DNA of 64,000 nt, from positions 9,692 to 73,691 of the forward strand of contig DATDQB010000003.1 in the NCBI GenBank assembly GCA_035292445.1, given 5' to 3'. Below, in pieces: positions 52,482 through 59,722 of this stretch. The notes beneath the pieces were generated by a model that had not been told where the DNA came from, made no database searches, and saw only the letters and a program-made list of their open reading frames with translations. Positions within the stretch are counted from its first letter, which is position 1; each line of letters opens with the position of its first letter. Position numbers and translations under genes: made by a program. Source of the DNA: Candidatus Omnitrophota bacterium. Its GTDB lineage: Bacteria > Omnitrophota > Gorgyraeia > Zapsychrales > Zapsychraceae.

Positions 52482-52778
52482 TTATATCAACTTAAGAATA
52501 ATAAAAGAAAAATATGTCAAAAGAATTGCAAAAATAAAACATGAAAGCATTGTGGACTTGACCCATCTAAATACAACATAGGCTAACAATTGGTACTGTA
52601 TGAAATATAAAAAACTCACTGAGTAAACATGATTTAAATCAATCAATGTGAGAGGCATACCTAAAAAACCTAAGCTGAATAGAACTCCCTCCCCTCCATT
52701 TCCCCCATAGAGTAAAATTATCAAAATACCAAATATAAGACTTCCTGCTGAAATAATCGAGGCAATAATTTTATTCAT
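52482..52778 (-). CDS. small hydrophobic protein (possible orphan immunity protein)
   Basis: 98 aa, 3 TM. Lies in an approx. 30% GC island downstream of the RHS toxin. Confidence 0.4.
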   Translation of the reverse strand: MNKIIASIISAGSLIFGILIILLYGGNGGEGVLFSLGFLGMPLTLIDLNHVYSVSFLYFIQYQLLAYVVFRWVKSTMLSCFIFAILLTYFSFIILKLI

Positions 52779-52806
52779 ATTTCTTTGTTATTTCCTCTAG
52801 TTGTAC

Positions 52807-53205
52807 TTAATATTTTTTAATGCGTGTCAATAAAACACATGACAAAAGAATTAATCCTACGGCTAATATTACGGGCAACTTAAATTCTTCTTTTGGAAAA
52901 TGCGATATATTTCTTTCATAATACAGATAAAGCCCCCCTATAAAAAAACTTATTCCAATTATTAGAGATAACCCACAAACAGTTTGCGCCGTAGATATTT
53001 TGCGCCTAATTAAGAAGTATATAAAATAAAGAATGATGGATATTTCTAAAATAAAACCCAATATATTAATTCCTGGTAGAGGAAAAATAAACGCCAGAAG
53101 ACAGGAATTCATAATGATTAAAATAACCATCGAAATGATTACAAGATAATTTTCTTTATTAGTGGGCACTCTATTATCCTCTTTAAGGAATTGAACTCGC
53201 TGCAA
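52807..53205 (-). CDS. small hydrophobic protein (possible orphan immunity protein)
   Basis: 132 aa, 4 TM. AT-rich. Confidence 0.4.
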   Translation of the reverse strand: MQRVQFLKEDNRVPTNKENYLVIISMVILIIMNSCLLAFIFPLPGINILGFILEISIILYFIYFLIRRKISTAQTVCGLSLIIGISFFIGGLYLYYERNISHFPKEEFKLPVILAVGLILLSCVLLTRIKKY

Positions 53206-53749
53206 TATAGATATTAATAAAATCCTGATTCTTACCTAATTCCATGTCCGGTTCTAAAACAGTAATCCGTAACTTAATATTATCTAAATACTTGCCTTGA
53301 TAAGGTATCTCAAACGTATCAAGTACTATCCATTTATAATAATCCGTATCATACCCATCTTCAAAATAACTACCCCAAGCTTTAAAAGCGGAAATTGTTT
53401 TCTCGCTCAAAATTTGAGCGTCAACCAAAAATTCAAGCTTAAATTTTCCATTGAACTTATGTTTGGTAGATAATACCTTTTTTTCAAATTCTAAACCGAA
53501 ATCATACAAACCCTTATACTTTGCATTAAGATTGAGCGTCTTGCTAAAACCCTTCTCAAGAAAATTCAACTTTTCTTTTACAATTGGATCATAGAAACCA
53601 TCTGGCGGATTAATTTTATTTATCATATACTTTACACCTCTAATATTATCGGATAGATAATTGTTATAAACAAAAACAACTAGAATTCCGAAAAAGACTA
53701 ACAAAAATAATATGATAAAAAAAAACAATTTACTTTTTCGAATGTGCAT
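53183..53749 (-). CDS. candidate cognate immunity protein for the RHS C-terminal toxin
   Basis: 188 aa. N-terminal TM. Overlaps the RHS stop by 20 bp. AT-rich codon usage unlike the core genome. Confidence 0.45.
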   Translation of the reverse strand: MHIRKSKLFFFIILFLLVFFGILVVFVYNNYLSDNIRGVKYMINKINPPDGFYDPIVKEKLNFLEKGFSKTLNLNAKYKGLYDFGLEFEKKVLSTKHKFNGKFKLEFLVDAQILSEKTISAFKAWGSYFEDGYDTDYYKWIVLDTFEIPYQGKYLDNIKLRITVLEPDMELGKNQDFINIYIAASSIP

Positions 53750-57305: not shown

Positions 57306-57339
57306 TATATCTCCTCCGAATTTTATTATTCTTATATGC

Positions 57340-59535
57340 TTACTCATAGGTAAAATTAATGATATTACCCAGTGCATCAGTTTTTTGGATGACATGGTTT
57401 AAAGCATCATAAGTAAAATTGGCGCTATTCCCACGGCTATCGGTCGACTTTATAACATTACCAAATTGGTCATAGATAAAGGAATGACTGTTTCCTAACG
57501 CATCGACAATGTCAGTCAGATTTCCATGGGAATCATAGTTAAAACGAGTGATATTCCCCAAAGCATCCGTTTCGCTACTGATCAAATTAAAATCGGGAGT
57601 ATAGGTCATCTTCGTCTGCTTGCCCAACGGATCAGTTATCTGAATAAGATTTCCATAAGAGTCGTACGTAAAATTTGTCACATTATTCCGCGCGTCTTTT
57701 ATGGACGTCCGATTCATAAGAAAATCCCAAATCTGTTGGGTCACTGCTCCCAAAGGATCTGTCTGGGAAATAAGCAATCCGGAACTGTTAAACATATAGG
57801 TGTTGTTGTTTCCTAAACTGTCGGTCACAACCGTCGTGTTGTTCGCCAGATAATCTAAAGTAACTTTGTTGACATTATTATCCTGCCAGTTCACAACCAC
57901 ACGACCTTGTGAGTCGTATGTAAAATACGTGTTGTGACCATTGGAATTGACCAGTTTAATAATTTTATGATTAGCATCATAAAAATAATTCGTGACCTTT
58001 CCTGCTGGGTCAGTAATCCAACTTAAGTTTCCATTTGGGTCATAGCCATATTGAAAAGTTTTCCCGGCCGGATCCGAAGCAGAAATAACACGGTTACTGG
58101 AATCAAAATTCAAGACGATCTTCCGACCGCTGGCATCTTGAATATAGGTCCCTCCTGCCGGGGCAGGGTCATAAACAAAAGTCAGCTTATTGCCATTGCG
58201 GTCTGTGCGGAATGATAACCGTCCATTAATATCATAGACAGCAACATTACCGTTTTTATCCTTGAGTGTAAAAGTATCATCCGAATTTTTGGTAAGTATG
58301 GAATAATTCCCTGGTGAAGGAACATAGGTACCTGAATTATTAATAAAGTATTTCCCAGCTCCATCGCCATCATAAATGATCACATTTCCACTTCTATCCT
58401 GAGTTAAGTTAACGTCAAAATCTGTGCGCCAACCATAGCCGAACATCCCGCTAAAAGTGGAAAAAGAGCGGTATTCCCGGGATAGAGAAAGCACTGGCCC
58501 TCGTCCATCCAAGGAAAAGTCTGTGGATGAGAAATATGCTTCCCCGGTAGCGATATTCACGGGGTCTTTGGTAAGGGTCTTTAAAGCCGAAGGAACGATC
58601 TCCGTTGCCGGCAATGGAGGTTCAGTTCCTTTATTAAGAGAAACCGAGACTACTCCAGTGCCGATATTATTATAGGGATCAGCTGCCACCGCCCTTAAAA
58701 TGTAGTCTCCTTTGGGGAATTTGCTGGCAGCCCACGAATAGCTGAAAGAACCAGGAACAGGTTTAGAATATGCCTGCAGCAAAAAGGATTGTCCGGTGGT
58801 TACATTATCAGCAAAAAGCTCCAGTCTGGTCACTGCAAGATTGTCAGAATTTGCGACTGAAATGGTTGTGCTTGACCCTTTGAGTGTAGATCCATCGCTT
58901 GGCGTTGTAAAAGTTACTGTAGGAGCTAAGTCATCAATCAAATCGAAATTGGTAGAAGTTAAAAGTACGCCATTACGACTGATTGTTATTCGCCAGACGC
59001 CGGGATGTGAAGTTACAAAGGATTTAATATTTATATATGGACCAGCACCGAATTCGACAGTGCCAAATGGATACTGATACGTTATTGAGCAAACCCACCC
59101 AAATAAAGGATTATCACTACAGAATTGCCAGTTTTCTTCATCTATGCGTGTCCAGGCTGCTTTTGCATAAAATGTTGTTGAACCTGTAGGCAGATATGTT
59201 ACCGGATCTAAAATAGGGTTATAAACATCCCATGTGAACACATCTCCAACCTCAGCGTTCTGAAGATAAATATAATAGTAAATAACATCCCAAGTCACTG
59301 AGGCGGGCGACCCGGGATAGAGATAATCGCAGCACCAAGAAAAAACCGGTTCAGTTGATGTGGTTGAAACAGATCTTTTGCTCTGTATAGCCTGCTGAAC
59401 CGGCTGCGGACTCGGAGCCATCCCCACCATTTTGTCTTCGCCATCGTCACTCAAAACGTCATGTACAAAAAGCAGACTAGAAAAAGCAAAAAGAAAAGCC
59501 CAAAAAAATAATCTATTTTTAGAACTTTTTCTCAT
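57340..59535 (-). CDS. secreted YD/RHS-repeat protein lacking RHS core and toxin domain (truncated or decoy)
   Basis: 731 aa. Signal peptide. Ig-like domain. More than 15 YD repeats. Ends NFTYE-stop in mid-repeat, 34 nt before the next gene's RBS. Confidence 0.8.
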   Translation of the reverse strand: MRKSSKNRLFFWAFLFAFSSLLFVHDVLSDDGEDKMVGMAPSPQPVQQAIQSKRSVSTTSTEPVFSWCCDYLYPGSPASVTWDVIYYYIYLQNAEVGDVFTWDVYNPILDPVTYLPTGSTTFYAKAAWTRIDEENWQFCSDNPLFGWVCSITYQYPFGTVEFGAGPYINIKSFVTSHPGVWRITISRNGVLLTSTNFDLIDDLAPTVTFTTPSDGSTLKGSSTTISVANSDNLAVTRLELFADNVTTGQSFLLQAYSKPVPGSFSYSWAASKFPKGDYILRAVAADPYNNIGTGVVSVSLNKGTEPPLPATEIVPSALKTLTKDPVNIATGEAYFSSTDFSLDGRGPVLSLSREYRSFSTFSGMFGYGWRTDFDVNLTQDRSGNVIIYDGDGAGKYFINNSGTYVPSPGNYSILTKNSDDTFTLKDKNGNVAVYDINGRLSFRTDRNGNKLTFVYDPAPAGGTYIQDASGRKIVLNFDSSNRVISASDPAGKTFQYGYDPNGNLSWITDPAGKVTNYFYDANHKIIKLVNSNGHNTYFTYDSQGRVVVNWQDNNVNKVTLDYLANNTTVVTDSLGNNNTYMFNSSGLLISQTDPLGAVTQQIWDFLMNRTSIKDARNNVTNFTYDSYGNLIQITDPLGKQTKMTYTPDFNLISSETDALGNITRFNYDSHGNLTDIVDALGNSHSFIYDQFGNVIKSTDSRGNSANFTYDALNHVIQKTDALGNIINFTYE

Positions 59536-59722
59536 TTATTTCCTCCTGATTTATTTGAAAAAAAGATGGATGACAGTGGACTTGCCCCGAATGGGGATCC
59601 ACATGGGCCGCCAGATCGCTCAACTGGGGCAGATGATTGGCGGAAACGGGATCAATCCGGGAATAAATAGTGACGAACAAAAGAATTGCAGTAAATGTGA
59701 TTCGGATTTTACGGTTCATCAT
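59519..59722 (-). CDS. small putative secreted/membrane protein
   Basis: 67 aa. Strong RBS AAGGAGG 5 nt upstream of ATGATG. Hydrophobic N-terminus. 17-bp overlap with the YD-repeat gene start. Confidence 0.4.
   Translation of the reverse strand: MMNRKIRITFTAILLFVTIYSRIDPVSANHLPQLSDLAAHVDPHSGQVHCHPSFFQINQEEINEKKF

Follow-up and report, generated by a model that had tools for sequence, protein, structure and literature searches.

According to current understanding, RHS (rearrangement hotspot) cocoons fold in the cytoplasm with the toxin inside, either as one chain or, in the toxin complex (Tc) proteins, from TcB and TcC together. To our knowledge, TcB/TcC is the only two-protein RHS shell, and with it the only functional analogue of the system described below. 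The Rhs cocoons of type VI secretion systems (T6SS), among them RhsA (7q97), Rhs1/Tre23 (7pq5) and that of S. bongori (8qjd), are made as one polypeptide that carries PAAR, VgrG-binding or clade domains and are delivered by the T6SS. A further group, the Sec-dependent RHS toxins of the WapA and bacterial teneurin-like kind, is described as single chains in passages of PMC12704120 and PMC13018210, which also give the features of these proteins. Here we analysed a stretch of 64,000 nucleotides (nt; the window) from a metagenome-assembled Candidatus Omnitrophota genome, in which two adjacent genes, A and B, add up to one RHS shell. The original prediction had seen an RHS polymorphic-toxin locus here, and repeats, core, variable C-terminal domain and downstream immunity gene were all found to be present. 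The best overall explanation, which we consider quite likely, is a two-gene split RHS toxin container with its toxin and cognate immunity gene.

The locus consists of five open reading frames (ORFs) in a row on the minus strand, namely A, B, and ORFs of 188, 132 (or 120) and 98 amino acids (aa). Every feature that had been proposed was located at its place on that strand. The exact sequence of protein A is in the public record, listed as a DUF6531 protein from a Candidatus Omnitrophota metagenome-assembled genome. The parts of the two shell genes are as follows.

57340-59535, minus strand: gene A, 731 aa, recognised by Pfam and NCBIfam matches and by co-linearity with single-chain relatives and solved Rhs cores
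59449-59535, minus strand: signal-peptide-like N-terminus of A, ~aa 1-29
Minus strand, aa 30-204 of A: variable N-terminal region
58693-58923, minus strand: Big_7 domain of A (Pfam), aa 205-281
58351-58566, minus strand: DUF6531 plug of A, aa 324-395 (E 8e-18)
57343-58350, minus strand: YD half-shell of A (named after its YD repeats), aa 396-731, ending '...FTYE' and stop
57306-57339, minus strand: A-B spacer of 34 nt, with the ribosome-binding site (RBS) GGAGG at 57313-57317, 7 nt ahead of the ATG of B (57305)
53730-57305, minus strand: gene B, 1191 aa from the ATG at 57305, C-terminal half-shell and toxin
57225-57305, minus strand: signal peptide of B, aa 1-27, the N-terminus reading MCTYFSRLVFFGAVLTFLGAGISNAYA/APP
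56094-57224, minus strand: array of two immunoglobulin (Ig)-like and two Big_7 domains of B, aa 28-404
54357-56093, minus strand: YD half-shell of B, aa 405-983
54123-54356, minus strand: Rhs core of B, RYYDP...DPFGL, aa 984-1061 (TIGR03696, E 4.5e-24)
53733-54122, minus strand: C-terminal toxin domain of B, aa 1062-1191 (130 aa)

The RHS repeats of PF05593 were matched at E 3e-46 in A and at E 3e-53 in B, and TIGR01643 was matched likewise. The core of B reads RYYDPQVGRW...DPFGL/FVFG, with the DPxGL autoproteolysis motif just before the variable C-terminal domain. Scans against Pfam and NCBIfam found no Rhs core in A and no DUF6531 in B; the plug (A only) and the core (B only) are on separate polypeptides, unlike in ordinary Rhs proteins. 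Gene A ends with TAA at 57342-57340, and B is read in a different frame. It had been thought that A stops in the middle of a repeat, but the stop falls at the exact end of a YD repeat ('...NFTYE').

It was found that A and B fit together when aligned to single-chain proteins. In five single-chain relatives (P0004, P0005, P0076, P0077 and P0079) the match to A is N-terminal, the match to B is C-terminal, and the two abut. Residues 13-446 of P0004 correspond to A298-731 and residues 443-1122 to B405-1061, while in P0076 residues 159-586 correspond to A304-731 and residues 583-1247 to B405-1074. The same abutting pattern was observed in six more single-chain genes, from the genome loci L008-L013. 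In the five relatives the C-terminal residue of A maps next to aa 405 of B, where the YD repeats of B begin: the junction in the single chains is '...KTDALGNKTTFTYD-A-AGNILTRKDALN...', A finishes with '...KTDALGNIINFTYE' and its stop, and B continues after its Ig array with 'DDNIVSETDALN...'. The cut lies exactly between two YD repeats, with no shell residue missing or duplicated, and leaves the N-terminal 40% of the shell of the single-chain relatives to A and the C-terminal 60% to B. It is very probable that the two proteins are complementary halves of one RHS shell and have been conserved as such, and the anatomy of the split is well supported.

Aligned with each other, the two proteins were only ~26% identical, a likeness at the level of the repeats and not the shared N-terminus that the original prediction had proposed to look for. 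This bears on the suggestion that recombination displaced an older rhs gene, of which A would be the decaying N-terminal remnant. A has neither core nor toxin, displaced fragments are typical of Rhs loci, and the rhs loci of E. coli are known for them. However, A is no paralogue of the N-terminal part of B, B itself lacks the part that A provides, and the displaced rhs fragments known to us are C-terminal pieces downstream and not N-terminal pieces upstream.

The distribution of the split among relatives also spoke against a remnant. In 20 of 25 A-like proteins, with 59-72% identity in the shell part, the stop comes after the same residue ('...FTY[EKQ]') and the frame is intact; in two others (P0018 and P0022) it comes one repeat, or 35 residues, further on. 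Pairwise identity was 65-77% for the A halves and 66-81% for the B shells; the two are equally conserved, which is not expected of a decaying fragment. The remnant explanation is therefore highly improbable, and what stands of the earlier choice between remnant, decoy and partner is the partner.

In six other loci (L001, L003, L004/L005, L006, L007 and L086) an A-like gene is directly followed by a gene with Ig, Big_7, YD and core parts, and the gene neighbourhoods of these loci are unrelated to one another. Most full-length B-like proteins have a signal peptide of their own, usually ending GI(N/S/E)NA(Y/H)A. The A-B spacers across loci are an 8-nt overlap (ATGAATAA), 14, 15, 34, 37 and 57 nt, with variable frame relation. 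These data also bear on whether A and B are one gene, interrupted by a sequencing or assembly error or with its stop bypassed by programmed frameshift or readthrough. In favour of this, the longest ORF in the frame of B extends as far upstream as 57395 and so shares sequence with the end of A, and B is in frame with A in L001 and L006. Yet the stop recurs in at least 20 independent assemblies, B has its own RBS and a conserved cleavable signal peptide, and the variation of spacer length and frame between loci argues against both sequencing error and programmed recoding. No conserved recoding signal was found at the A-B spacer, spacers and frames differing among the relatives. A sequencing frameshift or stop, which the original prediction had named as a possible cause of the split, was excluded by its conservation in independent assemblies, and programmed frameshift or readthrough was ruled out by the differing spacers and frames. 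We give the one-gene explanation hardly any credence.

To model the joined shell, A(320-731) and B(410-1191) were artificially fused and submitted to AlphaFold2 with the single-chain relatives as alignment. The predicted local distance difference test score (pLDDT) stayed at 85-94 throughout the shell and across the junction, which was modelled as a turn between two strands; the toxin tail had a pLDDT of ~22. The fusion model matched the S. bongori Rhs core 8qjd at E 1e-67, with template modelling (TM) scores of 0.77/0.88 and a root-mean-square deviation of 3.8 Å over 1112 columns. It also matched RhsA (7q97), 7pq5 and 8h8b, which are complete solved Rhs cocoons, and fitted teneurins and TcdB2-TccC3 much worse (TM <=0.50 to TcdB2-TccC3). 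By sequence, residues 4-396 of the 411 residues of A that were used correspond to 8qjd 5-403, and the core of B to 1006-1065 of this 1065-residue construct, so that the 411 and 657 residues sum to one cocoon. B has 657 residues between seam and cleavage site, compared with 664 (TccC2) and 690 (YenC2) counted from the N-terminus of these proteins. Judged by these lengths, the seam would lie near the natural break between TcB and TcC.

We consider it likely that A and B assemble physically into one cocoon. The two proteins might instead act independently, B closing a smaller shell or one with a lid made of its Ig array, and A, as an open half-shell, being secreted to serve separately as an adhesin, decoy or chaperone. 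Both have an RBS, a signal peptide and Ig-type domains of their own, the N-terminal regions of the A-like homologues vary freely, and the mirror-tree correlation of A and B distances was weak (r 0.39, p 0.08, in a narrow identity range). On the other hand, A and B fit the single-chain shells without gap or overlap, only A has the plug domain and only B the core, the pair is always adjacent, and 411+657 residues compare with 1065 in one solved cocoon. Independent action is thus improbable. The C-terminal tails behind the core of the B-like proteins are mutually unrelated, as expected for polymorphic toxins.

The evolution of the split is well supported too. More distant relatives are all single-chain (L008-L013 at 44-53% and actinomycete Rhs at 25-30% identity), and the close group is separated from them with 99% bootstrap, which indicated that the split is derived. 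According to this comparison with relatives, which is the step of our explanation that it shows, an ancestral single-chain Rhs gene bearing a signal peptide was cut exactly between two YD repeats ~40% along the shell, where a stop codon, a ribosome-binding site, a new signal peptide and an array of Ig-like domains are now found. The members of the main split type share a break point, a signal peptide and an Ig array, which suggests that this type arose once. A second type, with the seam 35 residues or one repeat further along the shell, was found in L086 (8001-13672, P0022 then P0096) and in P0018; the second gene of L086 has a signal peptide and a ~190-aa N-terminal region that is not Ig-like. 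This '+35' type is probably a second event. Downstream of a single-chain RHS gene, L010 (10116-12362) and L008 (5751-7064) each have an extra ORF with a C-terminal half-shell and core only, matching B aa 420-1070 and B aa 510-952, respectively, with ~40% identity and no visible signal peptide. These ORFs may be orphan modules of half-shell and toxin that start near the same seam, and they suggest that the toxin half could be exchanged as a module.

The last 132 residues of B gave 311 representative homologues at E <=1e-3. They sit directly after DPxGL at the C-termini of very different carriers, which range from 95 to 3559 aa. In a 41-sequence alignment only H1093, one glycine, N1163 and C1164 (of an NCQDF motif) were invariant. 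A His ahead of a Cys in an 'NC' motif is also the arrangement of the PPPDE (Peptidase_C97, DeSI) and LRAT/H-RAS-like families of the NlpC/P60 superfamily. Across the toxin family 16 of 41 members matched Peptidase_C97 (best E 7.5e-7) and 13 of 41 matched LRAT, whereas the domain of the window itself matched Peptidase_C97 only weakly and below threshold (E 0.047). An AlphaFold2 model of the toxin domain alone had a pLDDT of 91.6, and its best Foldseek match in the PDB, also weak, was the PPPDE deSUMOylase 2wp7 (E 0.54, TM 0.45). Sequence searches of the PDB, with the single toxin sequence and with a profile, gave chance-level matches only. From the family-level matches the toxin was assigned the fold of a putative permuted papain-fold Cys-His hydrolase, PPPDE/LRAT-like. 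Neither PPPDE nor LRAT occurs in the text of the 2012 polymorphic-toxin catalogue.

Behind the toxin there are three small ORFs.

53183-53749, minus strand: immunity ORF, 188 aa, overlapping the end of B by 20 nt
52807-53205 (132 aa, TTG start) or 52807-53169 (120 aa, GTG start), minus strand: small polytopic membrane ORF
52482-52778, minus strand: small polytopic membrane ORF, 98 aa, with the RBS AGAGGAAA upstream

A word-indexed homologue search with the 188-aa ORF returned only itself, and its family emerged from the loci around the toxin homologues. A scan of metagenome contigs with a query of eight toxin sequences gave 80 loci, and in 72 of them the toxin was followed by an ORF. This ORF was a homologue of the 188-aa protein in 38 of the 72 loci by phmmer and in 48 by profile. 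These homologues are 170-202 aa long, all have a hydrophobic N-terminus, and they start -19 to +226 nt from the toxin stop. Their position directly after homologous toxins identifies the 188-aa ORF as a cognate immunity family and bears out the immunity gene of the original prediction; on this sequence evidence, the 188-aa protein is the cognate membrane-anchored immunity protein of the toxin. In the NCBI annotation the gene starts at Met42 (147 aa). As the homologues retain the N-terminal anchor, the 188-aa start is favoured and the 147-aa start is probably too short. The pair of toxin and 188-aa ORF (53733-54122 and 53183-53749; loci L088-L166) is widespread, and neither Pfam nor NCBIfam has a model for it.

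By the positive-inside rule, positive residues ahead of the anchor suggest that the soluble domain of the immunity protein faces outside the cytoplasm, and this in turn suggests that the toxin acts in the envelope. We infer target and substrate of the toxin from this membrane-anchored immunity protein with its outward domain: it probably attacks the envelope of the target cell, either peptidoglycan or a lipid or protein of the membrane.

The GC content is ~30% at ~52.5-54.1 kb, a stretch that begins where the core ends and includes the three small ORFs, versus 42-52% in the shell genes. The 132-aa ORF, which more likely has 120 aa from the GTG at 53169 behind AAAGAGGA, and the 98-aa ORF both have an RBS and lie in the same ~30% GC block as toxin and immunity gene. 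They are probably real genes. The idea that they are orphan immunity genes found no support, since neither had a homologue in the 168 fetched loci; they had no Pfam match either. Two IS200-like Y1 transposase genes (51058-51561 and 51687-52295) lie directly downstream of the low-GC toxin cassette, and a Y1 transposase gene was also observed just downstream of a relative (L168, 12889-13554). At the other end of the locus, a 67-aa ORF at 59519-59722 shares 17 nt with the start of gene A. Its RBS is AAGGAGG and its N-terminus is hydrophobic; there was no homologue of it in the 168 fetched loci and no Pfam match. A promoter and terminator scan gave no signal above chance.

From these parts we infer how the container would be assembled and exported. 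One operon would give A and B, each exported by Sec. A carries the N-terminal DUF6531 plug and the first 40% of the shell, and B the other 60%, the C-terminal aspartyl-protease plug and the toxin. Outside the cytoplasm the two would co-fold through continuation of the beta-sheet, like TcB and TcC, into a closed cocoon that encloses the toxin, which would be released by cleavage after DPFGL. The Ig and Big_7 arrays, on A as well as on B, would point outward and bind a surface, and the assembled particle would leave by a type II-like route or remain on the surface.

As to delivery, no T6SS, VgrG, PAAR or TcA genes were found among the 40 window proteins scanned, and neither A nor B had a PAAR, VgrG-binding or clade domain. 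The original prediction had set a T6SS against Sec-dependent export; the window showed none of the former, and signal peptides on both A and B. A type IV pilus/type II-like cluster with PilM/N/O, T2SS-F platform and T2SS-E ATPase genes lies at 29425-41917 (29.4-41.9 kb), 11-23 kb from the RHS locus. In L168 (4138-7653) genes for a secretin and a type II/IV secretion ATPase stand directly upstream of the single-chain relative P0076, and in L001 (2105-3460) an ATPase gene stands upstream of the split pair. We regard these neighbours as a weak hint of a type II-like route after Sec export and not as evidence for it.

Several points weigh against this explanation. All characterised RHS cocoons that we know of fold in the cytoplasm, and we know of no precedent for the assembly of two Sec-exported, unfolded chains around an unfolded toxin. 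The cocoon was modelled as an artificial single-chain fusion, and the binding of A to B is a prediction; the weak correlation of A and B distances is a further point. The neighbour-joining tree had one split clade, but its monophyly had a bootstrap of only 4-13%, and within the close group single-chain members were interspersed among split ones. The type II-like link was drawn from neighbour genes in two loci only. Finally, the toxin fold was assigned from sub-threshold and family-level matches, and the structural match was weak.

Other features of the window were also noted. Between the RHS locus and housekeeping genes lie a MazF/PemK-like toxin gene (49932-50279) and, directly upstream of it, a 76-aa ORF (50279-50509), which are probably a type II toxin-antitoxin pair (49932-50509). 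The only tRNA genes found in the window are three tRNA-Ser genes (GGA, CGA and TGA, at 4236-4322, 24680-24767 and 27799-27885), and a seryl-tRNA synthetase gene lies in the same 64 kb (43503-44786). A 2024-aa ORF at 10881-16955 has a C-terminal subtilase domain (aa 1630-1908) as its sole recognised domain, and its first 1600 residues had no Pfam match.

Omnitrophota are suspected of a predatory or host-dependent life, and the locus would add a candidate contact weapon to these bacteria. If the explanation holds, completion and loading of a cocoon are possible after export, and labour has been divided in the TcB/TcC manner on more than one occasion. The split would also offer a natural, sequence-defined seam that could be used for engineering two-piece protein containers. 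The locus also provides a new toxin-immunity pair, widespread in metagenomes and without a family model. We are evenly divided on the broader proposal that a lineage of Omnitrophota and related uncultured bacteria has independently re-invented the two-protein RHS cocoon, with a seam near that of TcB/TcC, each half exported by Sec with its own adhesion array, assembly and loading outside the cytoplasm, and a toxin half exchangeable as a module. No description of a split or Sec-exported two-gene Rhs was found in the searchable literature, the incomplete coverage of which makes this absence of evidence only, and the passages of PMC13018210 returned by word searches made no mention of a split form.

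Compared with the T6SS Rhs cocoons, the locus has the same DUF6531-type plug, YD strip, DPxGL core, C-terminal polymorphic toxin and downstream immunity gene; it differs in having two polypeptides, signal peptides and Ig arrays, with no T6SS genes in the window. With WapA (Bacillus, Streptococcus suis) and the bacterial teneurin-like proteins it shares a signal peptide, adhesion or surface domains N-terminal to the YD shell, a C-terminal toxin and an immunity gene. With TcB/TcC (YenB/YenC2, 4igl; TcdB2-TccC3, 4o9x) it would have in common an RHS shell formed by two separately encoded proteins; here two genes add up to one shell. In both systems the C-terminal protein carries an aspartyl-protease core and a polymorphic toxin, and the C-terminal pieces are of similar size (657 aa here versus 664-690 aa in TccC2/YenC2). 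One Tc B component can pair with several C components, as stated in a passage of PMC11067744. In sequence and fold, A and B are much closer to single-chain Rhs than to Tc proteins (TM 0.77 versus <=0.50 to TcdB2-TccC3), no SpvB or beta-propeller domains were found in them, and Pfam detected nothing TcA-like among the 40 window proteins. According to passages of PMC10847048, Tc proteins are produced in the cytoplasm and set free by lysis, whereas both halves here have Sec signal peptides and Ig arrays. The split described here also differs from TcB/TcC in its history, having arisen separately, inside a clade of single-chain Rhs genes.

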